Part shown: positions 1 to 41,476 of the stretch, piece after piece | Layout: each line of letters begins with the position of its first letter | How positions within the stretch are numbered: position 1 is the stretch's first letter | Origin: a virus | Taxonomy: Duplodnaviria > Heunggongvirae > Uroviricota > Caudoviricetes | Virus record (IMG/VR): IMGVR_UViG_2663763326_000008 | Coordinates: 1 to 50,429 of that record | DNA: 50,429 nucleotides | Strand: one strand, 5' to 3' | The notes under the pieces: generated by a model | What the model was told of the DNA's origin: nothing | Databases searched by the model: none | Seen by the model: only the letters and a program-made list of their open reading frames with translations | Position numbers and translations under genes: made by a program

Positions 1-1158
1 ATGCTCACCGTTAAGCAGATTGAAGCAGCAAAGCCGAAAGAAAAACCATACCGCCTACTCGATGGTAATGGCCTGTACCTTTATGTCCCTGTGTCAGGGA
101 AAAAGGTATGGCAGCTTCGCTACAAGATTGACGGTAAGGAGAAAATCCTGACCGTAGGAAAATATCCGCTAATGACTTTGCAGGAGGCAAGAGATAAAGC
201 ATGGACCGCGAGGAAAGACATCTCGGTTGGCATCGATCCGGTAAAAGCGAAAAAGGCTTCGTCTAACAACAATTCCTTTAGTGCCATTTACAAGGAATGG
301 TACGAGCACAAGAAGCAAGTCTGGTCAGTAGGCTATGCAACTGAACTTGCCAAAATGTTTGATGACGACATTTTACCCATCATCGGCGGTCTTGAGATTC
401 AGGATATTGAGCCGATGCAACTGCTGGAAGTAATCCGCAGATTTGAAGATCGCGGTGCAATGGAGCGAGCCAACAAAGCCCGCAGAAGATGCGGCGAGGT
501 TTTCCGTTACGCTATTGTCACCGGCAGGGCTAAATATAACCCGGCACCTGACCTTGCTGACGCCATGAATGGGTACCGCAAGAAGAACTTCCCGTTTCTT
601 CCTGCAGACCAGATCCCGGCATTCAATAAAGCACTGGCAACATTTTCAGGAAGTATCGTATCGCTCATTGCCACCAAGGTTTTACGCTACACTGCCCTAA
701 GAACGAAAGAGCTTCGTTCCATGCTATGGAAGAACGTCGATTTTGAAAACAGAATTATCACCATCGACGCCAATGTGATGAAGGGACGCAAAATTCATGT
801 GGTCCCGATGTCAGACCAGGTGGTTGAACTTCTCACTACGCTAAGCTCAATCACCAAACCAGTATCAGAGTTTGTTTTTGCCGGGCGCAACGATAAGAAG
901 AAGTCAATCTGCGAGAACGCGGTACTGCTTGTGATCAAACAAATCGGCTATGAAGGTCTGGAAAGCGGTCACGGATTCAGGCATGAATTCAGCACGATTA
1001 TGAACGAGCACGAATGGCCTGCTGACGCTATTGAAGTGCAACTGGCACATGCCAACGGCGGATCTGTGCGAGGGATTTACAACCATGCTCAGTATCTCGA
1101 TAAGCGCAGAGAAATGATGCAGTGGTGGGCGGACTGGATTGATGAAAAGGTGGAGTGA
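1..1158 (+). CDS. int: Tyrosine integrase, P4/CP4-57 type
   Basis: 385 aa; N-terminus MLTVKQIEAAKPKEKPY, catalytic region HGFRHEFST and C-terminal RGIYNHAQYLDKRREMMQWWADW resemble E. coli P4-family IntA as I recall it; window starts at its ATG. Confidence 0.9.
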   Translation: MLTVKQIEAAKPKEKPYRLLDGNGLYLYVPVSGKKVWQLRYKIDGKEKILTVGKYPLMTLQEARDKAWTARKDISVGIDPVKAKKASSNNNSFSAIYKEWYEHKKQVWSVGYATELAKMFDDDILPIIGGLEIQDIEPMQLLEVIRRFEDRGAMERANKARRRCGEVFRYAIVTGRAKYNPAPDLADAMNGYRKKNFPFLPADQIPAFNKALATFSGSIVSLIATKVLRYTALRTKELRSMLWKNVDFENRIITIDANVMKGRKIHVVPMSDQVVELLTTLSSITKPVSEFVFAGRNDKKKSICENAVLLVIKQIGYEGLESGHGFRHEFSTIMNEHEWPADAIEVQLAHANGGSVRGIYNHAQYLDKRREMMQWWADWIDEKVE

Positions 1159-1302
1159 TACACCTTAACTATCGAATAGCACAAAGCCTTGCAATCCAGT
1201 GCAAAGCTTTGTGTGTCTCAGTTTTTATAAATTCTTAAGCAAGAATCATAGTTATAACTATTATGTAAATTTTATGATATATATTGTATTTAAATGCTGG
1301 TT

Positions 1303-3381
1303 TTACTTATTAACCCAACCTGTAGCATTTGTGTTGCTTTCCTTTATATAAAGTACTGTATTTCCACCTCCATCAGAACGAGTGTAAATAGAACCAACTG
1401 GTGCTCCAACTCCGCTAGATGTTGGGTTGCCTTCTTGCCCAAATATCACAAGTGAGCTTTTATCTGTAGCTTGATTATTCTGTGTGGCTGATGTTCCAAA
1501 TGAAACATTCCCTATAAATGACACGCTCTTACAGGTTGATGTAGCAAATATACCAACTGATGGTTTATTAGTTGCAATGCCATCACGAATTTGATTTGAA
1601 CTAACAATTACATTTTCTGCACCAGAGTCAATTCGTATACCATTATGGTTGTTATCTGCGGTAGAAACCCCAGCTATAATGTTTGATTGAATAGTAACAT
1701 TTGAATATTTACCATTAATATGAATCCCATGCAGGGAAATATTTCTAAAGATGTTGCTAGAAATTACAACATCATGCGAAAAACCAGACCCTATAAATTC
1801 TTCTGCATTGGTTTCAGAAATCCATAAAGAACTTGATGTTCCTGAATCGTATTCATTATTAGAGATGATTGATTTGTTAATAAAATCACCTTTGAAAAAA
1901 CCGATTCCGCCTCTTGCTGTGTTTCCAGTGACAGTTAGTCCTGAAACCCATCTTGCGTCTACTGCATATGATTGAGACTCTGTAATAAACATGGAATTGT
2001 TGGATATTACGATATCTTCATGAAATGCATCTGATGTATCTGTATATGGATATGTAGGTGCAGCAAGAAGAATCGGGGATCTAACGCCTTCAAAATAATT
2101 GCCAACAATGCGCCCCCTCCTTGCCCCCTGTGGTTTTGATGATGATGGGAATGGGGTTACATGAACTCCTCGCGCGGTACTGTTATAGAAAGAGCATCCG
2201 CTAACCACCCAATCATACCAGTTGAAAACCCTTACCCCGGCAAAGAGCATTCCATCGAACCTGCAGTTTATGACCCTTATATTTTTGTCCTGATTCCCAT
2301 ATGAATTAGCATGGTTCCCAACCCCCGCCCCCCACGCCCCAAACCCAGTGGTGGTATTTTGTGGATTTGAACCAAAATAACAGTTATCAACAAGAACATT
2401 GATGTTTGGGTAATAATCGCCAAGAGATTCAATCCCCGGATCTAACTGTATCGCTTCTGAATAATTTCGGTTGGAAAGTGGTTTGAAGCCAAGAAACTTA
2501 CAGTCTCTTATAATCACCCCTTGCCCGTCAGCAATATCTACAGCATGAAAATCGACTACATCAAGAAATGTTACTCCAACAATAGAAAGATTTCTTGGTG
2601 AGGAGGCCGCAATGATGTCAAAAGGATCTGTAGGGTGGTCTTGTCCTCCTCCATCTAGTATTCCGCCTGTTATTTTAATGTTAGTGCCAGTATTAGGGTT
2701 TATTCTCAGCATAACGTCATTAGAAAAATTACGTTTAATGGTTACGCCATCAGTCATCTTTAGGTGAGTATTTGATTTTATTTGCAACTCAGAAAGCAAA
2801 GTATATATGCCTGGTAGTGAAAACTGTAGTGTACCTCCTCCAATGCTATATATTGCATCTAGCGCAAATTGCAGAGCTACTTTATTGTCAGCATTCGATG
2901 GATGAGCACCGAAGTCAAGAACATCAATGATTTGTTGGTTCTTTTGGTGTTGAGTTTGATTTGCTGCTCCGGGGAATGGTTGTTTCACCGACACTAATTC
3001 ATCCCCATCACCATCATCAAAGGATGCCAACCTCTTCTGAAACTGATCAGGGTCATACTTCAGCACATTAGGAAAATAAAACTGCTGCGCACCACATGCA
3101 TCATAAACAGCCATAGAATGGCCTTGCACAGTTACGAATTTGGCAATCTGTCCGTTATATACTGGATACCCAGCGGCATTGATGACGATTGGCTGTGCAA
3201 CAGGAACGTGAGAACCATCTTCGTTATCAACATAGACCTGAATCTGGTTATCAGGATTTACCGGGTCAGTGTCAATTTTACCGATATAAATTTTGCCATT
3301 AGCTACGGCTTTAAAAGAACGCGCCATAGTGAAGAGTTGCGAAGGCATGCTCACTACAACATTGGCTGTAATGTCTGTCAT
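1303..3381 (-). CDS. Tailspike protein (P22 gp9-like N-terminal head-binding domain fused to a different receptor-binding domain)
   Basis: 692 aa; N-terminus [11 protein letters not shown]...[22 protein letters not shown]...[13 protein letters not shown]...NVLKYDPDQ closely matches P22 gp9 head-binding domain from memory; remainder diverges. Confidence 0.85.
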
Positions 3382-3481
3382 TTAATTTGCTCCAGATACA
3401 AGGAATCGCCGCAGCATGGCTACGGTGAATTTTGGGCATAAAAAAACCCAGCCGAAGCTGGGTCGTTGCGTTGGTTATCTG

Positions 3482-4405
3482 TCAGTAGTTATGTACTGAA
3501 GGAGGTAATTCTTTATTCTTAAGTCTCATCCATGCGGAAAGATTCGCTGGTCCGTCTGGCTCATTAATATCAACATCTCGTGTGTGGTTTATTAAAACGT
3601 CTCTCGCCATTCCGATAACATACGAGAATTCATGACCGTAGTCGTAGCATCTGCCGGAATAGTTCGATTGAATTTGTTTTAATGCCGGATACAGTTCGCG
3701 GAATAATGCCTGTGAACGGTTGGCATAATCCCATAACCATACAAGGCTGTTTGCTTCTTTTGCAGAAAGCTCGTCGGTTTTCTTCTCTTGTTTGCCAATG
3801 AACTCACCTTCAAGTGGAACTCGAGCTGCAAGTGACAGTGCTTCGGTAAACTGCTCCTCACTGATTTCTTTGTACGAACATCCAAAATGGGATTTCAGTG
3901 ACGACCACATGGTGATCATCGCCTTAGCCTGTTTTTCTTTTGGCAGAGACTGACCGCGACTCATGACGAGTTGTTTAATGGCTTCCTGCTGTTCAGTGGT
4001 GATTTTACCCGGCAACGCCTTTTTAACTTTGCGTGGGTTAACTACATGGCCTTTAGTCCAGTATTCGTAGAGCACATCGTCACACTCTTCCTGATACTGG
4101 ATTACCTTGTCGCGGATTTCAGGGCGGACTTTGTTAGGACTGATGCTGTTCAACCAAGCTGCCAATTTTCGTAAAGCCATACAAATCATGGCTTGCACCC
4201 CACCGGCAGAAGGTATGGTGATTTCCACCATACCCTTCGAGAAGCGTTGAGAAATCTTCTTATGTTGAGATTTCCAGTCTAGCCCCATTCCCTCAACGAT
4301 AGGTTTCATTGGGGTGTACGGCTCACCGTTGTGATTGACGACATAAAGCTCTGCGCCGTGGAATGGCACGTTGATAGTAGATACTGCTGTTGCTATACTT
4401 TTCAT
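3482..4405 (-). CDS. ant: Antirepressor (Ant-like)
   Basis: 307 aa; sits downstream of a small RHH gene and divergent from an Mnt-like gene, i.e. the P22 immI arrangement; size close to P22 Ant. Confidence 0.55.
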   Translation of the reverse strand: MKSIATAVSTINVPFHGAELYVVNHNGEPYTPMKPIVEGMGLDWKSQHKKISQRFSKGMVEITIPSAGGVQAMICMALRKLAAWLNSISPNKVRPEIRDKVIQYQEECDDVLYEYWTKGHVVNPRKVKKALPGKITTEQQEAIKQLVMSRGQSLPKEKQAKAMITMWSSLKSHFGCSYKEISEEQFTEALSLAARVPLEGEFIGKQEKKTDELSAKEANSLVWLWDYANRSQALFRELYPALKQIQSNYSGRCYDYGHEFSYVIGMARDVLINHTRDVDINEPDGPANLSAWMRLKNKELPPSVHNY

Positions 4406-4470
4406 GTCAGTTTTTCCTCAAAATTTACTGGCGATTTAAGCCCGAGCTACTCGCAATAGCTTGGGCTTTA
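4406..4470 (+). ncRNA. Candidate Sar-like antisense RNA / arc-ant intergenic hairpin
   Basis: Inverted repeat aagcccgagct..agcttgggctt (about 4438-4468) followed by ttta on + strand, antisense to the ant translation start; analogous in position to P22 sar. Confidence 0.25.
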
Positions 4471-4471
4471 C

Positions 4472-4618
4472 TCATTCTGGACAAACAATTCCATCCTTAG
4501 CTACTGACTCCTTTAGTCTCCTCAATACCTCATTACTGAACGACCGATCATCCTTTTTCGCGGACTGCTCCAAAGCCTTTTCTAGCCATTCTGGCATCCT
4601 TAATGTCTTAACTTTCAT
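4472..4618 (-). CDS. arc: Arc-like ribbon-helix-helix repressor (48 aa, not in ORF track)
   Basis: Hand translation MKVKTLRMPEWLEKALEQSAKKDDRSFSNEVLRRLKESVAKDGIVCPE; AAGGAG about 7 nt upstream of ATG; RHH-like pattern; directly upstream of ant. Confidence 0.55.
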   Translation of the reverse strand: MKVKTLRMPEWLEKALEQSAKKDDRSFSNEVLRRLKESVAKDGIVCPE

Positions 4619-4722
4619 TTTTGCTCCTTTGTATGTGGTACGCATACATAGTATTTAGGTACGCATTGATAGTCAATAGATACCTACATATCCTGTGGTA
4701 AAAAATTATTCAGGATGCGCCG
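4619..4722. promoter_or_regulatory. Divergent promoter/operator region between arc-like and mnt-like genes
   Basis: 104-bp AT-rich spacer with repeated ggtacgcat motifs and imperfect palindromes (tgtatg..cataca; attgatagtcaat). Confidence 0.45.
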
Positions 4723-4974
4723 ATGTCTGATCGTAAGTACAAAAACCCTCAAGTGAATCTGAGGCTTCCTGTAGAGATAAAGGAACGTCTTATTGAGCTG
4801 GCTGAGGCTAATTCTCGTTCATTAAATGCTGAGATGGTCGCGGCACTTGAAGCGTGGACCGAAAAAAATAAACACATTCAAGCACTAGACCTTGCAACTA
4901 TAGCATCACGATTGATAGATCTTGAACGCGATGTTGAGACGCTAAAGACCATGTATGGTAAGGATGAAAAATGA
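4723..4974 (+). CDS. mnt: Mnt-like ribbon-helix-helix repressor
   Basis: 83 aa; PQVNLRLPVEIKERLIELAEANSRSLNAEMVAALE resembles P22 Mnt/Arc N-terminal RHH (..RAEANGRSMNSE..) from memory; divergent from arc-ant. Confidence 0.75.
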   Translation: MSDRKYKNPQVNLRLPVEIKERLIELAEANSRSLNAEMVAALEAWTEKNKHIQALDLATIASRLIDLERDVETLKTMYGKDEK

Positions 4975-5336
4975 GTGACAATTCAGGATACTCAGACGAT
5001 CAACTGCGAGAGGCTGAATATCGCAAGGCGCTATCGTCTATAACTACAAAGGTTCTCGACTCTTTCTTGAGAGCTAAAGGTGTTCCAGACGAATGCCCAA
5101 TGTGCGGGCAGTCTGAAATGGTTGTCCCTCAAGTTCAATTTGTAAATCAGGATAATGGAAAAGACATCATGGGTAGGCATGCCCATTATGGTGAATATAT
5201 AAAAAACGAAGATGAATCATTCAACCCAATAAATTACTCTTATCATGTAATTTGCAAGCATTGCGGATACATTATGCAGTACAACACAGGTGTTGTGTTA
5301 AGCTGGTATCTAAGGGAGAAAAACAGCAATGTCTAA
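4971..5336 (+). CDS. Hypothetical protein with two CxxC pairs (zinc-ribbon-like)
   Basis: 121 aa; CPMCG...CKHCG; start overlaps mnt stop (ATGA). Confidence 0.5.
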   Translation: MSDNSGYSDDQLREAEYRKALSSITTKVLDSFLRAKGVPDECPMCGQSEMVVPQVQFVNQDNGKDIMGRHAHYGEYIKNEDESFNPINYSYHVICKHCGYIMQYNTGVVLSWYLREKNSNV

Positions 5337-5664
5337 GTTGAAGTTGGCTTACGATGCTGACAATCCTTTTCCGAATAGCGAATTTGCCCCCATCGGAATT
5401 GAAGACTCAGAAGAGCCAGCACATGGAGGTGGCAATGGAGGAGGATCAGATATGAACAGTAGAATGACCCGCATTGAAACGATTGCCGCCAACCAAGAAA
5501 AGCTAATATCAGAAACTAGAAAAGAGTTGATTGGCATCCGTGGCGACATGCACGGAATGGAGCGTCGCCTAGCAGATAAGATGGACGAGAATCAGAAGTG
5601 GCTTATCGCCCTCATGATATCTGCAATCCTTGCTCCGCTGTTTATTGCCTTGGTTACCAAATAG
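5329..5664 (+). CDS. Hypothetical C-terminally membrane-anchored protein
   Basis: 111 aa; Gly-rich linker then hydrophobic C-terminus WLIALMISAILAPLFIALV; overlaps previous gene. Confidence 0.5.
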   Translation: MSKLKLAYDADNPFPNSEFAPIGIEDSEEPAHGGGNGGGSDMNSRMTRIETIAANQEKLISETRKELIGIRGDMHGMERRLADKMDENQKWLIALMISAILAPLFIALVTK

Positions 5665-5685
5665 CTACTAACTAAGGAGATTTGT

Positions 5686-6009
5686 GTGTATACAACAGTT
5701 ATCGTGATAGCTATCGCACTCATTGTGGTTCAGTACCAACTGGCATCTTTAAAACAAAAGATATCTGACCTCAAGACTGAGAACGAAGCACTTAAAAGCT
5801 CAATAAAAGATGAGAAGAACAAACTATCATTCACTATATCTGATATTGAGCAATCCATTGAAATTATTGAGAATAATATTAACAGACTAAAAAAAGAAGA
5901 TATTCATGAAATCAATGACAATATCAAGGATTTGAAATCTTGGCTTAGGAATGTAGGACAAATCGCCACATCAACACGAGATAAGCTCAATCCATCCATG
6001 GATGATTAA
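5686..6009 (+). CDS. Hypothetical membrane/coiled-coil protein
   Basis: 107 aa; N-terminal hydrophobic segment YTTVIVIAIALIVV then heptad-like charged repeats; RBS aaggag upstream. Confidence 0.5.
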   Translation: MYTTVIVIAIALIVVQYQLASLKQKISDLKTENEALKSSIKDEKNKLSFTISDIEQSIEIIENNINRLKKEDIHEINDNIKDLKSWLRNVGQIATSTRDKLNPSMDD

Positions 6010-21915: not shown

Positions 21916-21991
21916 TGGTGCTGGTTAACGGACTTGAACCGCTACCCATTCGCTTACAAGGCGACTGCTCTACCATTGGAGCTAAACCAGC
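21916..21991 (-). tRNA. tRNA, anticodon tentatively UGU (Thr), CCA encoded
   Basis: Hand-folded cloverleaf: acceptor GCTGGTT/AACCAGC, T-arm AGCGG-TTCAAGT-CCGTT, anticodon loop CTTGTAA; coordinates +/-2. Confidence 0.6.
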
Positions 21992-21996
21992 ATATT

Positions 21997-22071
21997 TGGC
22001 GGGACAGCGTGGACTCGAACCACGATAAGAAGGTTAACAGCCTTCCGTAATGACCTTTATACGACTGACCC
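21997..22071 (-). tRNA. tRNA, anticodon tentatively GUU (Asn), CCA encoded
   Basis: Hand-folded: T-arm CGTGG-TTCGAGT-CCACG, anticodon stem GAAGG/CCTTC with loop CTGTTAA; one acceptor mismatch; coordinates +/-2. Confidence 0.5.
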
Positions 22072-24110: not shown

Positions 24111-24276
24111 CTTCTTCCTCGTGCATCGAGCTATTCGGATCGCTCATCAGTTCTGCGCAGCAGTGCTCACACACGTGAACTTCCAGCACATGCAGCTTCT
24201 GACCGCAGTTAGCGCACGTTAAAGCCCGCTCGACGCTTTCTTTCTGGTATTGGAGGGATTGGGATGGGCTAAGCAT
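24100..24276 (-). CDS. ninF: NinF
   Basis: [44 protein letters not shown] matches lambda NinF from memory; start taken at internal Met. Confidence 0.8.
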
Positions 24277-25213
24277 TAACAACCTCCATACAAACTTTCA
24301 CGAATGCCGTTGCTACTTCTGCATTGATTGCGTTTCCATATCCAATAATTCGCTGATCTTGATTGCGCTTTGCCATTCTTCCCAGTGTGGACTTGCCTCG
24401 TCCCAAGCTTTTGGCAATGCCATTAACCATCGGGAATGAGCCGGGTCTAACTGGACGATATTTTTCATCTCTACAGTAAAGCCAGTCTGCATCTCTCCAG
24501 AAGCCGTTAACCGGTAATGGGTACATAGCTTCACCGTCCCGGGAAGTTTCAAGCAGATTCTTGGGGTTCCGCTCTTGTCTTTTCCGCTGTAGCAATGCGT
24601 TGAACCTGTTGCATCGTTCGCTAAAGGAGTTTGCCATCCCGCTAGTCTCACGCATCCAGATAGGTTCTGAATTCCCCTGCGCGTCTCTGGCTGAAAGTTG
24701 ATATTTGTCGTTGGAGTAGGCCACCCAATACAATCGCTGCCTGATGTGCGGAGAACCGAAGCCCGCAGCGCAAATATCGGTACCTGCAGAGGTGTAGTTC
24801 GCACCTTCCAAGTCAGTTTGTACAAGGTCGAGCCAAGCGAGGCCGTCTGCGCTTGCAACCTGTTCGCCAATAACGATGCCAGGATTGCATTTTTCAATAA
24901 GCCAGAAGAATGCCGGCCATAAGTGCCGCTCGTCATCAACCCCTTTTCCTTTGCCTGCCGAGCTGAAAGGTTGGCATGGGCAACTTCCTGTCCAGATGCT
25001 CTTGTTGTCTGGCCATCCTGCTTTTCTAAGTGCATAGCTCCAAACTCCGATTCCTGCAAAAAAGTGGTGCTGGGTAAATCCTCGCAAATCACCTGGTGTG
25101 ACATCTTCAATACTCCTTTCATCTACATAACCGGGGGCAATTTCTCCAGCGTCAATTAAGTTACGCAGCCATTGCGCTGCATACGGATCTATTTCGTTGT
25201 AATACGCAGTCAT
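24269..25213 (-). CDS. DNA cytosine-5 methyltransferase-like protein (start uncertain, 25213-25255)
   Basis: PCQPFSSAGKG (PC motif) and FAGIG-type motif seen; occupies the ninC/D slot. Confidence 0.65.
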   Translation of the reverse strand: MTAYYNEIDPYAAQWLRNLIDAGEIAPGYVDERSIEDVTPGDLRGFTQHHFFAGIGVWSYALRKAGWPDNKSIWTGSCPCQPFSSAGKGKGVDDERHLWPAFFWLIEKCNPGIVIGEQVASADGLAWLDLVQTDLEGANYTSAGTDICAAGFGSPHIRQRLYWVAYSNDKYQLSARDAQGNSEPIWMRETSGMANSFSERCNRFNALLQRKRQERNPKNLLETSRDGEAMYPLPVNGFWRDADWLYCRDEKYRPVRPGSFPMVNGIAKSLGRGKSTLGRMAKRNQDQRIIGYGNAINAEVATAFVKVCMEVVNA

Positions 25214-25215
25214 CG

Positions 25216-25392
25216 TCATTTCCTCGCACGATGTCTTAGCCACCGGATATCCCACAGGTGAGCCGTGTAATTGAAGGTTTTTACGTCAGATTCTTTTTGG
25301 ATTGGCTTGCGTTTATTTCTGGAGCGTTTCGTTGGAAGGTATTTGCAGTTTTCGCAGATGATGTCGGCGATACTTCTTCGCTGTCGTCTCAT
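25216..25392 (-). CDS. ninE: NinE
   Basis: [29 protein letters not shown]...[20 protein letters not shown] resembles lambda NinE from memory; ATGA overlap with ninB stop. Confidence 0.7.
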
Positions 25393-27139: not shown

Positions 27140-28516
27140 TCATACGTCAGCCCCTTGTGCATATCGTCTGCCACGCGCAGCAGGTGCATTTGATGCTGTG
27201 CAAATCTGTCTGGCTTCATCCTGGTCACATGCAACAAAGTGTCCGTTACAGAACCGCTGGTAAACCGTACCAAGCGAGCCAAAACGGTTTTTCGTCACGA
27301 TGATTTCAGCAAATGGCGCGGCGCTACTGTTCTCGTCATATACCGCTTCCCGATAGAGCATGATGATTGAGTCTGCGTCCTGTTCAATGCTTCCTGAATC
27401 ACGCAAATCTGCGTTTGTCGGGCGTTTGTTTGGTCGCTTCTCAACATCGCGCGAAAGCTGACTTAGGGAGATAACAGGCGTTTTCAGGTCTTTCGCCATC
27501 GCCTTCAGGCTTCCGGAGATGTGAGCAATTGCTAGGTCGTTGCGGTCTGCTTTCGGCTTCTCAATCAGGCCAAGATAATCCGCCATGATTAGAGACAGGT
27601 TTGGATTTTCCTGTTTATGCCGTTCTGCGATTGAGCGTATTTCTTCGACCGATAACCGCGAGGCATCGACTACCCATACATCCAAATCCGCAAGCTGACT
27701 CATGCCGTTAGCAACACGTGCCCAGCACTCGTCATCCATCGATGCAGGATTTCGCAGCACGCTAACCGACATCCTCCCGGCGTTGGCAATGCTCCGCTCT
27801 GCAATCTGCAATGCGCTCATTTCCATTGAGAAAATCAATACTCCGCGCCGGACGTCAGAACCAGGAATAACGCGGCTTGCAACGCCTTCGGCAATCTTCA
27901 GCGCCAGTTCGGTTTTCCCCATACCAGGACGAGCGGCGATTATCACCAGGTCTTCCGCGTTCATCCCTCCGGTGATGGCATCAAGTTCTTCGATTCCGGT
28001 CTTCAGGGTATCGGACTCTTCTCCGTTCCTCAGACGCCTGTCAAGCGTGTCAGTGTAGTCGGTGATGATTTCCCCTAACCGTACAGGTTTAACCTCGTCA
28101 CGGGGCTTTCTGATGGCTGAAAGACGCTTTACAAGTTCATCCATCGCCTGACTCGATGCGTCGATGGTTCCGCTCTGAATTGGTTCACGCATTTCATCCA
28201 TGATTTCCAGCACCAGACGGCGGTGATAGTTATCCGCGACCATTCCGGCATATCCCTTCAGGTTTGCGGCACTCGGGCAGTTTTTGCTGGTCATCAGGAT
28301 TGACGTGAAATGCTCCTCTCCGCACGCCTCGGCAACCATCAGCGCGTCGATTAAATTTCTGTTTCGCGCCTGCTTGCGGATAACCTCGAAGGCTTTCCGG
28401 TAGAGCGGAATTGAAAACGCTTCCGGCTCCAGCGTTGCCAGAACGTCGCTGGCGGTTGGAGTTAATCCACCAATCAGCAGGCCACCGATAACGCTCGCTT
28501 CGATATCCTGTTTCAT
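27140..28516 (-). CDS. Replicative DNA helicase (DnaB family, P22 gene 12-type)
   Basis: 458 aa; Walker A GMGKT, DnaB-like N-terminal domain; overlaps O-like gene stop. Confidence 0.9.
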
Positions 28517-29460
28517 GCAATCCCCCTGTCTGCAAACTTCCCTTCCCGAACTCCCGTTAACGAGTCTTCTCTCAGCAGGTAATCAAAATCAGCCGTCCAG
28601 CCCGTGTCGTTGTCTCCGAAGTAAAACGGCTTGGCCTGATGCACAAACGCCCTGACATACGCCCTGAAACCGTCCACGTTTGGCGTTTTCAGTTGCGGGA
28701 TGATTTTCTTCAGGCGGCGTTTGCGTTTCTCGTTGACCGCAACAGCGTGTGGCAGTCTGTCACCGACTTCGGTGTTGTAGGCGTTCAGGAAGGATTCGTA
28801 GTCGATTCGTTCTGCCTTGCGACGTTCAGGTTTAACCTGCCCATCGCCTCCCCCATTGGGGGGTAGGGGGGTATTATTTATATTCTTGTTAATACCTTCT
28901 TGTTCATGATGTGCGGTTGTTTGTGCGGCTTCATGTGCGCTTTCATGTGCGGCATGTACGCTGAAAGCCGCGCCATTGCTGGCTTCATCATGTGCGGCAT
29001 CATGTGCGGTTGTTTGTGCGGCTTCATGTGCGGGTGAATTGTCCATTTTTTGAGCATATTCATGGTAATTTGTGATGGTGATCACACGACCTTTTTGCTT
29101 CTCTCCATCAATGGTGATCATCCCCTCTTTCACAAAAACCTGAAGCATCCGCTCAACCTGATCACGGCTTGCCGGCTTGCCATGCCTGTCGCATAACTGA
29201 AGACCTAAATCAGCTGCTGTCACAACCAGTTGACCGGGTTGCAGATGCCATTCATGACCTTTGAAATTAGCTTTGTATGGCTTTCTGGCGGCATTCAGGA
29301 GAAGGTTTTCCCACAGGGTGCGAAGATAAACGTCTTTCGCCCATGACTGTTTCAGAATGCTCCGGTACAACGGAATGTAACCAGTTTTCTGGTTCTCCAT
29401 CCTGTTGCTCCTGCGCTCGTGTGCGGCGCTGAAATCGTAGATTTTTGCTGTATTGCTCAT
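28513..29460 (-). CDS. Replication initiation protein (O-like / P22 gene 18-position) with embedded origin
   Basis: 315 aa; central low-complexity [10 protein letters not shown] repeats encoded by DNA iterons; position between cII and helicase. Confidence 0.8.
28880..29040. repeat. Origin iterons (about 8 copies of TGTGCGG-containing repeat) with adjacent AT-rich tract
   Basis: catgtgcggttgtttgtgcggcttcatgtgcg present twice plus further tgtgcgg copies; AT-rich tattatttatattcttgttaata alongside; inside O-like gene as in lambdoid ori. Confidence 0.7.
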
Positions 29461-32674: not shown

Positions 32675-32689
32675 GCCCTGAAGAAGGGC
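32675..32689 (+). promoter_or_regulatory. nutL boxB
   Basis: gccctgaagaagggc hairpin downstream of pL. Confidence 0.8.
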
Positions 32690-33188: not shown

Positions 33189-33196
33189 GGTGAGAT

Positions 33197-33520: not shown

Positions 33521-33533
33521 TCGGCCTTTATTT

Positions 33534-33854: not shown

Positions 33855-34195
33855 TGAATAAGAAATACATCGTTGAAGTTATAGAGCGAGAAACGAAAGA
33901 AGTAATTAAACATTTCGAATTTGATAATTATAGAAAAGCTGACCGCGTAGAAGAGGGATTGTTGCGACAAAGTAATCTCGAAAAATTTGATGTTGTCATG
34001 CGATGCGAATAAGCACCTATAGCAGATTTGCGAGTCTGCTATGTGAGCAATGTCGCTCGTAACTAAACAGGAGCCGACTTGTTCTGATTATTGGAAATCT
34101 TCTTTGCCCTCCAGTGTGAGGGCTTTTTTATATGCATACCAATAACGCTTCACTCGAGGCGTTTTCGTTATGCAATCAAACAGAAGGAGCATCCT

Positions 34196-34366
34196 ATGCA
34201 ACAGTTCGCTATTGCAGGGGCGGCATCGGTTCGCCCTTTCAACCCGATTTTATCGGTACAGCATTCACGAAAAAATATTTTAACCGGAGCAGACTTTAAA
34301 CAACCAAGAATGAAAAGTTTGCTCGAAAAGCTTTGGGATATTTTGAAACAACAAGGCCGTCCATGA
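34196..34366 (+). CDS. cIII: CIII-like protease inhibitor
   Basis: MQQFAIAGAASVRPF...SLLEKLWDILKQ resembles lambda CIII MQYAIAG... from memory; start at internal Met of track ORF. Confidence 0.5.
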   Translation: MQQFAIAGAASVRPFNPILSVQHSRKNILTGADFKQPRMKSLLEKLWDILKQQGRP

Positions 34367-34447
34367 GTTTTACAGATAACTGGTCAGACGAAGAATTCAT
34401 TCGTCAGATGAAAGAAATGCTCAATCAGCACAAAGAACAGGAGAAAG

Positions 34448-34759
34448 ATGATGATTCTGACTCTGAATGATAAGCGTGAAATATCGCAAATTATCGCAAG
34501 TTTTACTGATGAAGATTACGAGCGAATCAACAGTGAAGTTGATCGCCTCTGCAAACGTTGCGACCCAATAAGCGAAATGCTTCGCTCATATAAACCAGAT
34601 GAACACACTAAGGACGCTATCGACTGGCTGGAAGATGATGACTGTGACTATCAGGAAAAAGCCGCTGAATGGTTCTGGGATGCAATAACCGAAAGAGTTA
34701 AGGCTGAATATGCCTTCGCAATATTCAAGCGCAGACACATTTTTGGAGAAGCAGCATGA
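34448..34759 (+). CDS. Hypothetical protein
   Basis: 103-aa acidic ORF upstream of recT. Confidence 0.4.
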   Translation: MMILTLNDKREISQIIASFTDEDYERINSEVDRLCKRCDPISEMLRSYKPDEHTKDAIDWLEDDDCDYQEKAAEWFWDAITERVKAEYAFAIFKRRHIFGEAA

Positions 34760-35667
34760 GCAATATCGTTGAATTCGTTAAACAGCAGGAGCAGTTATTC
34801 TGCGGAGCATTGACTGAACAGACGGTGACATGGGCTAAGGAAAGCCAGTTTGCAATTCAGTATTTCCAGAAAAACGATTACCTGGCTAAAACAGCACTGG
34901 CAAATCCAACCAGCGCACAGAACGCCATCATCAATGTTGCGGCGATCGGCATCACCTTAAACCCGGCCAGCAAACTGGCTTATCTGGTTCCTCGCGACGG
35001 CATGGTGTGCCTTGATATCAGTTATATGGGATTGCTCCATATTGCAATGGAGTCTGGTGTTATCTCATGGGGTCAGGCAAAACTTGTTCATGCTAACGAT
35101 ACCTATGAGTCAAACGGGCTTGATAAAGCACCAACCCATAAATACAACGCCTTCGGTGATCGTGGTGATATCGTTGGCGTTTACTGCACAGTTAAGACGC
35201 CAGCAGGTGATTATCTAACGGAAGAGATGAGTCTGGCTGAAATTGAGGCTGTAAGGAAAACAAGCAAGGCGGCATTCAGCGATAAAGGACCATGGGTAAA
35301 TCACTGGAATGAGATGGCGCGAAAGACGGTCGTAAAGCGTGCAAGCAAGTATTGGCCTAAGGCATCACGTCTTGATAGTGCTATTCACGTACTAAACGAA
35401 GAAGAAGGTGTGTGGACTGAACCAGTTATGCCGCACAAATCAGAGGAAGATATCCGCGAAGATGAACGGAAACGCCAGCAGGAAATAATGGAAAAAGCAC
35501 AACTTCTTTGTGATGAAATGGCTCAGGCTGAAAAAATGGATGATTTGAAGAGATATTTTGCAGAAGCATATCGCCTGACATCTGGAATGAAATTGCAGCA
35601 GAACATACAAGCCATTTACATAGAATGCAAAGCGAAACTGGAGGTTGCCAGTGAGCAAACTGTATGA
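34756..35667 (+). CDS. recT: RecT-family single-strand annealing recombinase
   Basis: 303 aa; GPWVNHWNEMARKTVVKRASKYWP resembles Rac RecT GPWVTHWEEMAKKTAIRR from memory. Confidence 0.8.
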   Translation: MSNIVEFVKQQEQLFCGALTEQTVTWAKESQFAIQYFQKNDYLAKTALANPTSAQNAIINVAAIGITLNPASKLAYLVPRDGMVCLDISYMGLLHIAMESGVISWGQAKLVHANDTYESNGLDKAPTHKYNAFGDRGDIVGVYCTVKTPAGDYLTEEMSLAEIEAVRKTSKAAFSDKGPWVNHWNEMARKTVVKRASKYWPKASRLDSAIHVLNEEEGVWTEPVMPHKSEEDIREDERKRQQEIMEKAQLLCDEMAQAEKMDDLKRYFAEAYRLTSGMKLQQNIQAIYIECKAKLEVASEQTV

Positions 35668-36133
35668 AATAGCCAATGAATACGCAAAATTGATGGATTC
35701 AGATTTAGAACCAGAGATGATTGCTGACACAATAGAAGGCATGGAAGGAGAATTTACCGATAAAATAGAGCAACTTCTTTCCGTCATTAAAAATGAATCT
35801 GGTTATGCTGAACGCCTCAAGGAAGAGGCAAAGTCACTTAATGAGCGAGCCGCAGTAATCCAAAATAAGATTGACAGCATCAAATCATATATAGCGTCAT
35901 CGCTTGAAATGGTTGGCAAGAAAAATATTCGAGCAGGTATTCACCAGGTAACAATCCGCAAACCGTCAGAAATTGTAGAAATAATCGACTCAAGCGCCCT
36001 TCCTCCTGAATACGTTGAGTTTGAAACGACAATTAAAGCCGACAAACTGGCAATCAAACACCAACTAAAAGCAGGAATAAATATCCCCGGCGCTCAACTC
36101 AAAGTTGGGAAACCTTCACTTCTTATCAAATAA
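35645..36133 (+). CDS. Hypothetical coiled-coil protein (recombination-module partner)
   Basis: 162 aa immediately after recT, overlapping its stop. Confidence 0.4.
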   Translation: MPVSKLYEIANEYAKLMDSDLEPEMIADTIEGMEGEFTDKIEQLLSVIKNESGYAERLKEEAKSLNERAAVIQNKIDSIKSYIASSLEMVGKKNIRAGIHQVTIRKPSEIVEIIDSSALPPEYVEFETTIKADKLAIKHQLKAGINIPGAQLKVGKPSLLIK

Positions 36134-36144
36134 CGGTATCGCCT

Positions 36145-36459
36145 ATGAAAAAGACTCCATGGGAGAAATGGGAAGTCGATTTCTTGCGCGAGGTAGCGGC
36201 GACAATGCCAGTTGAAGTTATCGCAGAAAAACTGGAAAGGACTGAAAAAGCAGTAATGGCGAAAGCAACAAGGATTGGCGCTGACATTGTTAGCCGACTT
36301 CGTGGAAGACGCTGGACAAGAGCCGAAGTATCACTTTTCGGTAAGTTCTCCGCAGAAGAAATAGCAATTGCAACCTGCCGCTCAATTTATTCAGTAAGAG
36401 CTATGCGATACAAGCTAAAAAAACTCGATGAAGAAAGAGCAGGCATACGAATAAATTAA
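36145..36459 (+). CDS. Hypothetical protein
   Basis: 104-aa ORF. Confidence 0.4.
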   Translation: MKKTPWEKWEVDFLREVAATMPVEVIAEKLERTEKAVMAKATRIGADIVSRLRGRRWTRAEVSLFGKFSAEEIAIATCRSIYSVRAMRYKLKKLDEERAGIRIN

Positions 36460-36475
36460 CATGGAATAATTAACA

Positions 36476-36757
36476 ATGAAGCTAAACATCGACCTCGGAA
36501 AATACGTTATTACCGGAACCAAACACGACCTGATTCTTAGCGAAAGAGGAATTATCAAAGAAGGCGAGAATGCAGGGAAAGAAACACTAAGTCGTATCGG
36601 TTATTACAGCAAGTTTGAGCATCTGGTTAAAGAGTTATGCAACCGTGAAATCCTGTTATCTCAGGCGCAGACGCTACAGGATATTCAGCAGCATATCGAG
36701 ACTTTAGGTGTATCACTTAGCATGGCTGTTGACCAGTTCATGGAGAGTAAATCATGA
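36476..36757 (+). CDS. Hypothetical protein
   Basis: 93-aa ORF. Confidence 0.4.
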
Positions 36758-36917
36758 GAGGACTTGCATACAATCCCGGCATTCTTCCGGCAGAAATGAT
36801 TATTCGCCAACGCGTAAAGCCAATGCCATCGAGAGAGGAATTGCTTAAGCGAAACTCGTTTCCATCAGTGAATCAGAACAAATATCTGAATGCGATGTGG
36901 CGTAAAGGAGGCAAACA

Positions 36918-37166
36918 GTGAGCAATTCAGCACGACTACAGCTTGGTTTTTCACCGCTATCAAAAACAATCGTGTTGGCAAAAATGCGTGACTTAGGGGA
37001 TGGAACAAAACGTCGTGTCGGCAATGATCGCGGTCGCGATGTAACCAACGAGGCCGCACAACTCGTTTGGCATCTAGTCATGGCTGAAGGCGGTGAAATT
37101 AATTGGGAGCTGGATGATGGTTCTCGCATGGTATTGAAGGCAGAAAAGCAGGAGCCTCCACAGTGA
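36918..37166 (+). CDS. Hypothetical protein (apparent GTG start)
   Basis: 82-aa ORF, no in-frame ATG at start. Confidence 0.3.
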
Positions 37167-37438
37167 ATATCGACACCACGATAACGATCGATACGGCCCT
37201 AAATACCGGACTGGCACTTCTCGGTTGGCTTTACATCATGTCCAGTACATGGCGATGGCTGGGTTCCATTTTCCTAAAACAGTGGAAAAAACGGCGCAAA
37301 CAGGAACTACGCCAGAAGGCATTAGAAGCGTTCTATGACGCATTTGAACTTAGCCGCATAGAACCAGGCACAACAGCCAGGATAGCGACAAAAGGCGACC
37401 TGATGATAGTGATGTTCAGACAGGAGAAAACAAAATGA
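37163..37438 (+). CDS. Hypothetical protein with one hydrophobic segment
   Basis: 91 aa; GLALLGWLYIMSS segment. Confidence 0.35.
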   Translation: MNIDTTITIDTALNTGLALLGWLYIMSSTWRWLGSIFLKQWKKRRKQELRQKALEAFYDAFELSRIEPGTTARIATKGDLMIVMFRQEKTK

Positions 37439-37659
37439 CAGAACAGACGATGACAAATCGCGAACTTGTTGATGCCGCGATTGAACTTGCTGGCGATTTT
37501 TATTCCATGATGGGTTACGAGCATCGACCTGGTTTTAAGTATTGGGAGTCACCGCATCCGCAAGAACAACAGGTGTTTGAAATGGCTTGCCGTGCTTTTG
37601 AGGTTATTCGCGGTTCTGATGTGATGGACGCCGTTGCCGACTTGGAGGATGAAGAGTGA
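37435..37659 (+). CDS. Hypothetical protein
   Basis: 74-aa acidic ORF. Confidence 0.35.
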   Translation: MTEQTMTNRELVDAAIELAGDFYSMMGYEHRPGFKYWESPHPQEQQVFEMACRAFEVIRGSDVMDAVADLEDEE

Positions 37660-38285
37660 GCGAGATTAACTATCAGGCACTGCGTGAAAAGGCAGAAAAA
37701 GCAACGTGGGGAGACTGGGACTCATATAAACCACACCGTGGCGCACGTGGTTATAAGGTCCGACTAAGTGGTCAGGCCATTGCGCAACACGTTCTGAAAA
37801 ACAACGCTGAATTTATTGCTGCCTTTAATCCAAAGGTTGCTTTGGCATTACTGGATGAACTGGAAAGAAACCAGCAATACATCAAACGCCGTGACCAGGA
37901 GAACGAGGATATTGCGCTAACGGTAGGGAAGCTGCGTGTTGAGCTGGAAGCCGCAGAGAAGCGCAACGCAAAATTACAAAGCGAGAATGCATACATCCGC
38001 AACCGGTACAAAGAACTGGACCTGTTAATCGGGAAAAACATTCTGGTCATGCAGGCTGCGATTATCGAATGGCAGGCAACTGGCGACGCTAAGAGCGGAC
38101 TGGCATGGATTTATAACACACTGTTTGGCCCAGGCGAATTGCCGGACGAATCTGAGAAAGATGCTCAGGCCTACTTTAATCGCAAATATGCACCGATTGA
38201 CGAAAAGCTTATGGAGCTTCACAAGTGGTTTTGGGAACAAAGTAAAGCCGAGCGCGCCGCTGGCATTCGCATCAAAGGAGAGTGA
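37656..38285 (+). CDS. Ea22-like early-region protein
   Basis: 209 aa; N-terminal INYQALREKAEKAT motif and coiled coil typical of lambdoid ead/Ea22-like proteins as I recall them. Confidence 0.45.
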   Translation: MSEINYQALREKAEKATWGDWDSYKPHRGARGYKVRLSGQAIAQHVLKNNAEFIAAFNPKVALALLDELERNQQYIKRRDQENEDIALTVGKLRVELEAAEKRNAKLQSENAYIRNRYKELDLLIGKNILVMQAAIIEWQATGDAKSGLAWIYNTLFGPGELPDESEKDAQAYFNRKYAPIDEKLMELHKWFWEQSKAERAAGIRIKGE

Positions 38286-38423
38286 GGATGTTCAATAATT
38301 TGCCTGGTACTGGTTTTTTCGTTGTTTTCGGTGTCATTTGCGCCGTTATTGGCTGGGCAGTTATTGAGTCCATTCTTTGGCTGCTTTCTTTCATTCACAT
38401 AACTATTGGTTGAGAACTGATCC

Positions 38424-39278
38424 ATGACCACTTTAACCGACAAAGAACTGATTAAAGAAATCAAAGAGCGAATCGGTAGCCTGGACGTGCGAGACAATAT
38501 TGAGCGTCGGGCTTATGAAATTGCTCTGGCATCGCTGGAAGCAGAGGCAGTTATGTTCTGTATATCAGGACAAAATGTAGATTCAGAAGAACATGTATCA
38601 ACCAGCAAAGCGGTTGTTGATGCCTGGGTTGAAGAATGGAATCAGGTTGACGGAAGTCCTGGCGAACCACTGTACAAAACTATGCCACTCTACTATCACG
38701 CTGCCTTGCCAGCGCCGGTAGTGCCGGAAGAAGCAACTCCGGAAAACGTAGAAATGCTCTCTGGCTATGTTTCCACGTACAAATTAACCGATAGCGAGCG
38801 CGATATTGCTGCCGAAATATGGAACGCCTGCCGCGCCACCATGCTTCATGGTGCCGAACCTGCAAGTAATCATGAAGAGTTGCCACTTGATTATCTCCAA
38901 GGTCAAAAAGATGGTCTTGAATGGGCTGCGCAGCTTGCAGAAGCAAATCACCCACAAACTGGCGACTGGCTTTACGATGACCCGCTGGAGCTGGCTAAAG
39001 CTATCAGAAAAGGTCCTGACATGCCCGAATTCGATGGACCAACTCCGGTAACTCTGGATGGTTGGATAAGCTGTAGTGAGCGAATGCCTGAGAACATTCC
39101 CGGAAGTTGTAAAGAGTATCTGGTGTTTGATGGGCTTAATAATAAAGTTCATCACGATTACTGGGTTGTCCCTGATGGAGACAGTGCGCCAGTTGCGTCG
39201 TTCTGGAATCATTACGGGGCACATGTAACTCACTGGATGCCTCTACCAGAACCGCCGAAGGAGGTTAACCGTGGCTAA
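38424..39278 (+). CDS. Hypothetical protein with DUF551-like C-terminus
   Basis: 284 aa; C-terminal WISCSERMPE...THWMPLPEPP pattern common in lambdoid early-left regions. Confidence 0.5.
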   Translation: MTTLTDKELIKEIKERIGSLDVRDNIERRAYEIALASLEAEAVMFCISGQNVDSEEHVSTSKAVVDAWVEEWNQVDGSPGEPLYKTMPLYYHAALPAPVVPEEATPENVEMLSGYVSTYKLTDSERDIAAEIWNACRATMLHGAEPASNHEELPLDYLQGQKDGLEWAAQLAEANHPQTGDWLYDDPLELAKAIRKGPDMPEFDGPTPVTLDGWISCSERMPENIPGSCKEYLVFDGLNNKVHHDYWVVPDGDSAPVASFWNHYGAHVTHWMPLPEPPKEVNRG

Positions 39279-39555
39279 CCTGCAACTTGCCGTTAAAGGT
39301 GAATACTTCGATGCCATGATTCGCGGGGAGAAAACGGAAGAGTATCGCCTGTGTAATGACTACTGGAATAAGCGCCTCGTTAACCGTAAGTATTACCGCC
39401 TGATTATCACAAAGGGATATCCGAAGCGCGAAGACTTCAGTCGCAGAATTGACGTCCCGTATAACGGATATGAAATAAAGACAATCACACATCCGCACTT
39501 CGGTGATAAACCGGTAAAGGTGTTCGCGATAAAGGTAAATATCGGCAATAAATAA
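39271..39555 (+). CDS. Hypothetical protein
   Basis: 94-aa ORF. Confidence 0.4.
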   Translation: MANLQLAVKGEYFDAMIRGEKTEEYRLCNDYWNKRLVNRKYYRLIITKGYPKREDFSRRIDVPYNGYEIKTITHPHFGDKPVKVFAIKVNIGNK

Positions 39556-39627
39556 CAATCCTCGCACTCGCGGGGATTTCTTTTATCTGAACTCGCTACG
39601 GCGGGTTTTGTTTTATGGAGATGATAA

Positions 39628-39846
39628 ATGTACTTCCGGGTCACAGGTGAATGGAATGGAGAGCCATTCAACAGAGTTATCGAAGCAGAGAACATCAATG
39701 ACTGCTATGACCACTGGATGCTGTGGGCGCAGATAGCACATGCAGACGTAACCAATATTCGAATTGAAGAACTGAAAAACACCAAGCCGCCTGATGGCGG
39801 TTTTTTATTGCCTGATTTGCAGGTTCGATTCCCTATTCGGAGATAG
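39628..39846 (+). CDS. Hypothetical protein
   Basis: 72-aa ORF. Confidence 0.35.
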   Translation: MYFRVTGEWNGEPFNRVIEAENINDCYDHWMLWAQIAHADVTNIRIEELKNTKPPDGGFLLPDLQVRFPIRR

Positions 39847-39851
39847 CACTC

Positions 39852-40052
39852 ATGCAACACGAACTACAACCTGATTCACTGGTTGATTTGAAATTCATCA
39901 TGGCTGATACTGGCTTTGGTAAGACCTTCATCTATGACCGGATTAAGTCCGGAGACCTGCCTAAAGCCAAAGTTATCCACGGGCGAGCAAGATGGTTATA
40001 TCGTGACCATTGTGAATTCAAAAATAAGCTCTTAAGCCGCGCCAATGGGTAA
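39852..40052 (+). CDS. AlpA-family HTH protein / putative excisionase
   Basis: 66 aa; HTH-like ADTGFGKTFIYDRIKSGDLP; immediately upstream of integrase. Confidence 0.6.
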   Translation: MQHELQPDSLVDLKFIMADTGFGKTFIYDRIKSGDLPKAKVIHGRARWLYRDHCEFKNKLLSRANG

Positions 40053-40300
40053 AATAGCGGGTAAAATATTTTTCACATCTAAAAAACACCATTCCAATCA
40101 ATCCCCTGCCGCCTCAAGTAGATGTCTGCAGGGGACACCATGAACACTTCTCACTAAGTTCAATTAATTCCATAACTCACTGTTTTAACTGATATCATCT
40201 CCTTATACTCGTCCAGCAAAGTACCATTATTTCTAATGGAATCTATACATCTTTGCGTATAACATTGTGTATAACTGAGTTCGATCTTTTTTCTATACAC

Positions 40301-41476
40301 ATGCTGCTATCTGACATCCAAATAAAAAGAGCAAAACCGAAGGACAAACCCTATACGCTTAACGATGGTATGGGGCTATCACTCCTGATCGACACAGCGG
40401 GCAGTAAAGGCTGGCGTTTTCGCTATCGCTTTGCAGGTAAGCCTAAGATGATTTCCTTTGGCGTATATGGCGATGTGTCGTTGGCACAGGCACGTACCAA
40501 ACGTGATGAAGCGCGTTCGATGTTAGCCAACGGGATAAACCCAAGTGAAGCCAGAAAAGCAGATAAGATTGCTTTGCAGTTCGCGCATGAGAACAGCTTT
40601 GAGTCTGTGGCCAGAGAATGGCACTCATCGAAAAAAGCCACCTGGTCAGAGGGTTATGCAAAAGAGGTTCTCAATTGTATGGAAAAGGATATTTTTCCTT
40701 TTATCGGCCAGCGCCCAATTGAGCAGATTGAACCATTAGAACTGCTAACCGTCCTGCAAAAAATAGAGAAAAGAGGTGCGCTAGAGCAAACCAGTAAGAT
40801 CCGCCGCCGCTGTGGTGAAGTGCTTCGTTATGCTGTTGCCACTGGTAGAGCAAAGTATAATTTTGCACCCGATTTAGCTATCGCACTCAACAAACCTAAA
40901 ACCCAACACTTCCCGTTCCTGACTGAAAGCGAGTTGCCCGAGTTCGTTAATGCTCTGGATAACTATCAGGGCAGTTTAGTTACCAAATACGCCACGCAGC
41001 TGTTGATGCTAACAGGCGTGCGAACAATTGAACTACGTGCAGCGGAATGGGCTGAGTTTGATTTAGATAATGCCTTATGGGAGATCCCCAAAGAACGGAT
41101 GAAGAAACGCCGCCCCCATCTGGTTCCGTTATCAACTCAGGCGATCAATATCCTGAAAAAGCTGCAAGAAATAACAGGGAATTACAGCCTCGTTTTCCCT
41201 GGCCGGAATGACGTCAGTAAACCAATGAGCGAAGCCAGCATCAACAAAGTGATAAAACTACTGGGTTATCACGGTCGGTTAACGGGTCACGGTTTCAGGC
41301 ATACCATGAGCACCATCTTGCATGAGCATGGGTTTGAAAGTGCCTGGATTGAAATGCAGCTTGCGCATGTTGATAAGAACTCTATTCGAGGTACTTACAA
41401 TCATGCGCAATATATTAAAGATCGACAAGTAATGATGGAATGGTACGCTAGCTTATTAAATACGACCTGCTATTAA
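40301..41476 (+). CDS. int: Tyrosine integrase, P4/CP4-57 type (paralog of 1..1158)
   Basis: Start taken at MLLSDIQIKRAKPKDKPY; shares RRRCGEV.RYA..TGRAKYN.APDLA and HGFRH motifs with the first integrase. Confidence 0.9.
   Translation: MLLSDIQIKRAKPKDKPYTLNDGMGLSLLIDTAGSKGWRFRYRFAGKPKMISFGVYGDVSLAQARTKRDEARSMLANGINPSEARKADKIALQFAHENSFESVAREWHSSKKATWSEGYAKEVLNCMEKDIFPFIGQRPIEQIEPLELLTVLQKIEKRGALEQTSKIRRRCGEVLRYAVATGRAKYNFAPDLAIALNKPKTQHFPFLTESELPEFVNALDNYQGSLVTKYATQLLMLTGVRTIELRAAEWAEFDLDNALWEIPKERMKKRRPHLVPLSTQAINILKKLQEITGNYSLVFPGRNDVSKPMSEASINKVIKLLGYHGRLTGHGFRHTMSTILHEHGFESAWIEMQLAHVDKNSIRGTYNHAQYIKDRQVMMEWYASLLNTTCY

Follow-up and report, generated by a model that had tools for sequence, protein, structure and literature searches.

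Two integrase genes in a 50,429-bp Escherichia coli sequence very probably belong to two elements in tandem at argW, a P22-like prophage and a P4-related satellite

The 50,429-bp DNA sequence of IMG/VR virus record IMGVR_UViG_2663763326_000008 (Caudoviricetes; its whole length is called the window below) is a stretch of E. coli chromosome that is colinear with the closed genome of sequence type 131 (ST131) strain 4993 (NZ_CP103557.1), and it carries two P4-type integrase genes, integrase 1 at 1–1158 (+) and integrase 2 at 40301–41476 (+). We are highly confident that these genes serve two separate elements, a P22-like prophage (intS...torI) and a P4-related satellite (int2...alpA), which lie in tandem at the tRNA gene argW and have one integrase each; the gene order is yfdC, argW, prophage (intS ... 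torI), satellite (int2 ... alpA), dsdC. A preliminary description of the sequence had offered two assignments of the integrases, and the second of these, in which the prophage uses integrase 1 and integrase 2 belongs to a satellite-like element, is borne out by the matches of integrase 1 to phage int genes, by the position of the attachment (att) core and by genomes that hold the satellite alone.

Window positions 1–40376 differ from strain 4993 by 2 mismatches and 1 gap (99.993% identity over 40,377 bp), and positions 39076–50429 are identical to it. The left half of the locus in that strain reads yfdC, tRNA-Arg (argW), intS, tailspike and the remainder of the P22-like prophage through torI; after torI come integrase 2, sce7725, sce7726, Ogr/Delta, primase and two small open reading frames (ORFs), and these are followed by the Ash/Icd-like gene, a P2-family capsid gene, a 286-aa ORF, an AlpA-type helix-turn-helix gene and dsdC. 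The window runs from the intS start codon at base 1 to the start codon of the minus-strand 286-aa ORF at its last base, so it is without the left att site of the prophage and without the last gene and right att site of the satellite; these flanks (the outer cores, the P' arm and alpA) were read from the strain 4993 genome.

The att core between torI and integrase 2

The 16-bp att core CTGCAGGGGACACCAT has a single exact copy in the window, at 40126–40141 (+), which equals the 3' end of argW and the published core of KplE1 and HK620, a duplicated 16-nt CTGCAGGGGACACCAT (PMC2951348). Strain 4993 has three copies, which in window-equivalent coordinates are at −176..−161 (copy 1, formed by the end of argW and one further base), 40126–40141 (copy 2) and 51120–51135 (copy 3, ~700 bp to the right of the window end and adjoining dsdC). 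About 40.3 kb of prophage lies between copies 1 and 2, and about 11.0 kb of satellite between copies 2 and 3. The core at 40126–40141 thus serves both elements, the P22-like prophage as its attR core and the satellite as its attL core. A three-way alignment shows the switch: as far as the core the window tracks the attP of HK620, and from there on it tracks the satellite-only strain SK1144. Phage homology across the torI region ends at ~40141–40154, the end of the core, and none of the 355 matching phage records reaches integrase 2, which is absent from all 50,697 phage records used for comparison; over the 10.3 kb from 40142 on, the only match in these records is 112 bp in the Icd-like gene.

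The preliminary description reported no tRNA-derived direct repeat. The window does hold only one core copy, so that a direct repeat could not have been seen in it, but the tRNA-derived core itself is present. A direct-repeat search within the window returned no att pair and nothing beyond short families of the kind that chance produces, as expected from the off-window position of the partner cores; the suggestion to look outside the window was a good one, since the partners were found there, at the argW 3' end and next to dsdC. Of the intervals that had been proposed for att sites, 40053–40300 is the productive one; it contains the core, which is flanked on the left by arm repeats for IntS and on the right by those for Int2. 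In the P arm, two GGGTAAAAT repeats at 40046–40068 (+) are candidate IntS arm-type sites, as 8-mers that recur in the P' arm; the form GGGTAAAA(T) has two copies at ~40047–40067 and three among the 160 bp that precede integrase 1, and the GGGTAAAA repeats coincide with the annotated 'attP' repeat_region of HK620 (1441–1463). On the other side of the core, TCTATACA / TGTGTATAACT repeats at 40242–40300 (+) recur near the far core and are candidate Int2 arm-type sites in the P' arm of the satellite, with three copies of TGTGTATAAC/TCTATACA at 40242–40300 and two beside the third core (window-equivalent 51037–51060); the int2 promoter probably lies within this repeat stretch. The IntS-type and Int2-type sets are element-specific and unshared. 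No argW-like sequence was found in the other two intervals: 1159–1302 is a terminator-bearing spacer that follows int without a break in virion genomes (below), and 41477–41560 is coding sequence within the convergent sce7725 gene.

These observations bear directly on the first assignment of the preliminary description, a lambda- or P22-style arrangement in which the prophage would own integrase 2, transcribed from the leftward promoter and with att downstream of it, and integrase 1 would come from an element to the left. The same-strand order of torI and int2 does look like the xis–int order of lambda and P22, and a terminator-like site sought between torI and int2 was not found. However, torI and integrase 2 have the core between them, all related phage genomes are without integrase 2, which abuts argW in ~400 genomes that have no prophage (below), the stretch at 41477–41560, where a downstream att site would be expected, codes for part of the sce7725 product, and to the left of integrase 1 there are only 160 bp of phage attachment arm and then argW and the host gene yfdC. 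This arrangement is refuted by the empty-site and virion-genome comparisons, and we give it next to no credence. The resemblance to lambda and P22 is otherwise real, in that a heterobivalent tyrosine integrase is combined with a small excisionase made from an N-antiterminated leftward operon, and immediately before torI the sequence shares 95% identity with the lambda-type region that precedes xis (in an alignment that includes the lambda-like phage HK630). In lambda and P22, however, attP is beyond int, and int and xis are together at one prophage end, whereas here attP is between torI and int, which is why the lambda-style assignment misled.

Occupancy states of the argW–dsdC locus

If the core delimits two separate elements, the junctions of each possible state of the locus can be predicted, and we counted these states with synthetic junctions built from the predicted crossover and searched in 5,426 complete E. 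coli genomes. The empty site, argW-core-dsdC, is present in 912 genomes (up to 100% identity), an IntS/TorI element alone (torI-core-dsdC) in 857, and the satellite alone (argW-core-int2) in about 400, the last value being the 421 genomes that cover at least 80% of 40000–41700 minus 13 tandems. Those 13 genomes have the tandem as in the window (torI-core-int2, 99.5–100% identity), and another 6 have the reverse tandem (satellite arm-core-P' arm-intS). Strain SK1144 exemplifies the satellite alone, with the same satellite proteins between argW and dsdC, and strain D6 the reverse tandem, in which the satellite is next to argW and is followed by a decayed IntS...TorI element; satellite DNA identity is 99.99% in SK1144 and 99.8% in D6. 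All of the predicted single, double, reversed and empty states were found, which argues that each cassette moves as a core-bounded unit. The comparison with empty sites, which the preliminary description had recommended, was decisive together with the off-window search. The argW–dsdC interval is a documented hypervariable hotspot, and its stacks of elements in either order are explained by one argW-shared 16-bp core that two or more integrase lineages use.

The same counts speak to two further explanations. The first is a composite element, in which both integrases would belong to a single ~51-kb unit that lies between the outer cores and moves whole. Three identical cores in direct repeat do permit recombination of copy 1 with copy 3, and both integrases recognise the same 16-bp core, but each half occurs alone in hundreds of genomes, 6 genomes have the halves the other way round, each element has arm-type repeats of its own, and 51 kb is larger than a P22-type headful, which is ~41–43 kb. 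A composite that normally moves whole is therefore very unlikely, and occasional co-excision of prophage and satellite is possible. The second is that the window is an assembly chimera whose two integrases were joined by misassembly at a repeated sequence. The repeated 16-bp core is the one thing that favours this, and it is opposed by the presence of the torI-core-int2 junction in the 13 complete genomes above, which were assembled independently, and by the colinearity of the window with a closed chromosome; we regard a chimera, which the preliminary description had named as a way in which its account could fail, as practically excluded.

How two such neighbours would move can be laid out from what has been published for relatives of the prophage. 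In the module of KplE1, HK620, Sf6 and CUS-3, intS lies at attL, which its promoter overlaps, and torI lies at attR (PMC2951348, PMC3509656); the phage is inserted by IntS into the 3' end of argW in such a way that the tRNA is regenerated, and TorI directs excision, in which IntS and TorI recombine core copy 1 with copy 2. In KplE1, IntS is expressed from a promoter inside attL that it also represses, a negative autoregulation in which TorI takes part as well (PMC2951348). The paper on phage Kapi1 likewise places attP between int and xis in Sf6, HK620, KplE1 and Kapi1, and hence these genes at opposite prophage ends. Since attP is between the excisionase gene and int here as well, integration splits the two genes apart, with intS, under its own promoter within attL, ending up by argW and torI at attR. 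Upon induction TorI would be made from the N-antiterminated leftward transcript, since torI is the last gene of that operon, and IntS and TorI would recombine copies 1 and 2 and so restore the argW–satellite junction seen in the ~400 satellite-only genomes, while Int2 and the AlpA/Vis-type protein would excise the satellite through copies 2 and 3. As for the origin of the tandem, the phage would have integrated into a strain that already held the satellite; it probably arrived second, given that genomes with the satellite alone are common, in ST131 above all, and those with the tandem rare. The reverse order in 6 genomes indicates that either core copy can be the target.

Four points weigh against the two-element interpretation or parts of it. 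Both outer cores, the P' arm and the satellite AlpA gene are off-window, and for these we relied on strain 4993. Excision of the prophage or of the satellite from this chromosome is a prediction from sequence. Homology to P4 (40% identity for Int2 and 46% for AlpA) is the ground on which Int2 is taken to be active and AlpA to be its directionality factor, and the order of arrival rests only on the frequency of satellite-only genomes.

The IntS/TorI module and the P22-like prophage

Integrase 1 (385 aa) is assigned to the P22-like prophage as an intS-type gene on the basis of DNA identity, Pfam architecture and its RefSeq product name, 'prophage integrase IntS'. Over the whole gene its DNA is 95.6–96.9% identical to int of HK620, Sf6, CUS-3, HK633, N7, Kapi1 and others, and besides HK620, Sf6 and CUS-3 about 20 further P22-like phages carry an int that matches it in this range. 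In strain 4993 a tRNA-Arg gene is annotated 161 bp upstream; outside the window, ~1–176 bp to the left of base 1, are the P' arm, the promoter of integrase 1 and, in the 3' end of argW, the attL core, and the attL/P' sequence is close to that of HK620. The statement in the preliminary description that the two integrases are paralogous, P4-type and distinct, with common motifs, holds up well: they are 45% identical over their full length (175/387, E=1e-123) with conserved R...HGFRH...Y motifs in the alignment, both have the Arm-DNA-bind_3 + Phage_int_M + Phage_integrase architecture (PF13356, PF22022, PF00589), and over ~400 aa integrase 1 is 35% and integrase 2 is 40% identical to P4 Int, so that domain architecture and full-length similarity to P4 Int make both of them P4-type tyrosine integrases.

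Integrase 1 and the tailspike gene (1303–3381, −; RefSeq annotation), the last late gene of the prophage, are convergent and separated by exactly the 144-bp AT-rich spacer that had been described before, at 1159–1302 (28.5% G+C). This spacer holds a terminator and not an att site. Folding gives a hairpin of 14 pairs followed by a T-run at 1179–1214 (+), at a place homologous to that of the annotated HK620 terminator; a pattern scan for terminators in 1159–1302 returned none, this hairpin being outside the scan's rules. Virion genomes match int and the spacer contiguously to ~1225–1228, where the exchangeable tailspike module starts. The N-terminal head-binding part of the tailspike matches tailspike genes of HK620, CUS-3 and epsilon34, and the receptor-binding part has no close match among the phage records.

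At the other prophage end, torI (39852–40052, +) encodes the excisionase, or recombination directionality factor (RDF), as judged from identity to HkaC, the RefSeq name 'TorI' and the literature. The 66-aa product is identical to HK620 HkaC at 66/66 positions; HkaC has been equated with TorI, whose role as excisionase and directionality factor is established (PMC2951348, PMC3509656). The HK620 virion genome, in window orientation, reads hkaC (= torI), attP core, int, terminator. The preliminary description had called this gene AlpA/Xis-like and placed it at the end of the leftward (pL) operon, before integrase 2; it is an excisionase gene and the last gene both of the leftward early operon and of the P22-like prophage, but it is torI, and its product has no match to Pfam Phage_AlpA.

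The module is therefore recognizable as that of KplE1 (CPS-53) in E. coli K-12, whose IntS, TorI and argW site are common to HK620, Sf6, CUS-3 and Kapi1. Likeness extends to int (~96% DNA identity), an identical TorI, the identical 16-bp core, the argW 3' end as target, the same arm repeats and the split layout that puts int at attL and the excisionase gene at attR; all of the defining features that can be read from sequence, namely an IntS-type integrase, TorI, a duplicated core with a copy in argW and an attP between the excisionase gene and int, were found. It differs here in belonging to a P22-like prophage of 40.3 kb that is apparently complete, and in having a satellite rather than dsdC next to attR. 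The two-integrase arrangement is thus already known as the split int/RDF module of KplE1, HK620 and Sf6, here beside a second argW-specific element, and the two-integrase observation itself holds no new biology. Its practical lesson concerns the calling of prophage borders: prophage callers and lambda-minded readers misplace the borders of HK620/Sf6-type prophages, adding the neighbour's integrase and cutting off attL, and the window is itself a case of such an error, beginning as it does at the first codon of intS and ending inside the satellite.

A second tRNA-derived piece lies upstream of torI. The 16-mer TTGCAGGTTCGATTCC at 39817–39832 (+) is an exact match to the argW T-arm, no shuffled sequence gave as many hits, and it overlaps the cII box/pI promoter annotated in HK620. 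In the argW tRNA TTGCAGGTTCGATTCC directly precedes the core bases TGCAGGGGACACCA, so the phage carries the final 30 nt of argW in two pieces, with 293 bp containing torI and the P arm inserted between them. The piece is conserved in HK620, CUS-3 and UM146, with one mismatch in strain D6, and may be left over from an older attP with a longer identity block. The CUS-3 record (CP000711) ends at the T-arm 16-mer (40192–40207), which is labelled 'attR core' there; torI and the real core are beyond the record. In the CUS-3-related UM146 chromosome torI comes next, and the core is one G short (CTGCAGGGACACCAT); strain D6 has the same 1-bp loss, which might immobilise the UM146 and D6 prophages.

Between tailspike and torI the prophage body (3482–39800, annotation of strain 4993) is of the Lederbergvirus type. 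Its first part carries immI (ant/arc), ejection protein, coat, scaffold, portal, terminase and lysis genes and Q, and its second part the nin region, replication genes, cro/cII, cI, N and the leftward early operon; P22-type coat, portal, gp4/gp10 and ejection proteins, the tailspike head-binding domain and a lambdoid early region together place it among the P22-like phages. The integrase 1 and torI genes are full-length and close to those of functional phages, and from its sequence the prophage looks complete. It also carries tRNA-Thr(TGT) and tRNA-Asn(GTT) genes between the Q antiterminator and lysis genes (21916–22071, −), a DNA cytosine methyltransferase gene in the nin region (24269–25255, −), and, within the replication initiator gene (28513–29460), four ~12-bp CATGTGCGG-type units at 28903–29045 that are probably lambdoid origin iterons.

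Gene content of the P4-related satellite

Integrase 2 (391 aa), assigned to the satellite from its similarity to P4 Int and from the satellite-only genomes, starts 160 bp past the shared core. A TTG start at 40253 was considered and set aside, as RefSeq and N-terminal alignments to integrase 1 and P4 Int favour the ATG at 40301. Convergent with integrase 2 are genes of the sce7725 and sce7726 families (NCBIfam; 41456–43309, −; 32% G+C), a pair that sits where P4 has its cII/defence hotspot. PADLOC matches the sce7726-family gene to its 'cll' model and has no hit for the sce7725 protein; the cII gene of P4 is likewise annotated as a member of the sce7726 family, and literature mentioning sce7725/sce7726 was uninformative. 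The pair is probably defence cargo in a P4-type hotspot.

Farther along is a gene for an Ogr/Delta-type zinc-finger activator (43989–44261, −; Pfam PF04606, E=5e-14), and between it and the primase stop codon a repeat search found a cluster of GTTACC/GGTAAC iterons (44326–44520), dense 9–12-mers that contain these motifs in both orientations and resemble the P4 crr replication repeats in place and form. The primase/helicase gene (44544–47231, −) encodes Zn-ribbon, Toprim and DUF927 parts by Pfam; its first 320 residues share 38% identity with P4 alpha, and the helicase part (DUF927) differs. An Ash/Icd-like ORF (47864–48454, −; Pfam Phage_ASH) contains both a C4 antisense RNA (48122–48209, −; Rfam RF01695, 81 bits) and isrK (48290–48367, −; RF01394, 69 bits), and this is an RNA immunity region of the P4/P1 type, with 71% DNA identity to P4 8285–8707. 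Just past the right end of the window is the satellite AlpA gene (PF05930, E=5e-20), whose product is 46% identical to P4 Vis; the P arm of the satellite is in the same ~700 bp, ahead of the third core.

The last two genes before the window end are less like those of P4. The first encodes a P2-family major capsid homologue (48542–49546, −; PF05125, E=1e-66) that is 25% identical to P2 gpN, and the second a 286-aa protein (49569–50429, −) with a predicted all-helical structure (predicted local distance difference test, pLDDT, 86). The 286-aa protein has no match in Pfam, PHROG or NCBIfam, no similarity to P2 gpO or P4 Sid, and a model with no meaningful match to PDB folds; its relatives are hypothetical proteins only, nearly all of them in Enterobacterales (Salmonella, Klebsiella, Enterobacter, Cronobacter and others). 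A weak DUF5375 match had suggested a relationship to P4 ORF106, and BLASTP did not confirm it.

Measured against the SatelliteFinder core set for P4-like satellites (int, psu, delta, sid, alpA, ash/epsilon and alpha), the element has int, delta, alpA, ash and an alpha-type primase, and no sid or psu was found among its ORFs with Pfam and PHROG, so we call it P4-related and not a canonical P4-like satellite. A search for the 19-nt P2/P4 cohesive end with up to 3 mismatches gave no match, and BLAST to the cos regions of P4 and P2 gave nothing significant; a diverged cos is possible. Its likeness to P4 lies in an integrase next to the att core, sce7726/cII-family cargo after int, the Ogr/Delta activator, the alpha-like primase with iterons downstream, C4 and isrK immunity, AlpA/Vis and a length of ~11 kb. 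It departs from P4 in the DUF927 helicase part, in the absence of a recognisable sid, psu or P2/P4 cos 19-mer, in the capsid homologue and 286-aa helical protein that it carries, and in its target, which is argW rather than the leuX used by P4. No description of such a gene set (capsid homologue and 286-aa protein, no sid/psu) was found in the satellite literature searched. It is conceivable, and we would put it no higher than a doubtful suggestion, that the element represents an undescribed P4-related branch that dispenses with Sid and Psu and sets capsid size by its own diverged P2-family capsid protein and the conserved 286-aa partner. A weaker possibility is that the two elements of the tandem are coupled, either through read-through of leftward-operon transcription into int2, past the shared core, or through cross-action of the integrases on the core.

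Beyond the window, at window-equivalent ~50930–50980 (~200–250 bp past its end), the right arm of the satellite has a (GGGCT)9 microsatellite between alpA and the third core, which probably accounts for small length differences among satellite copies.

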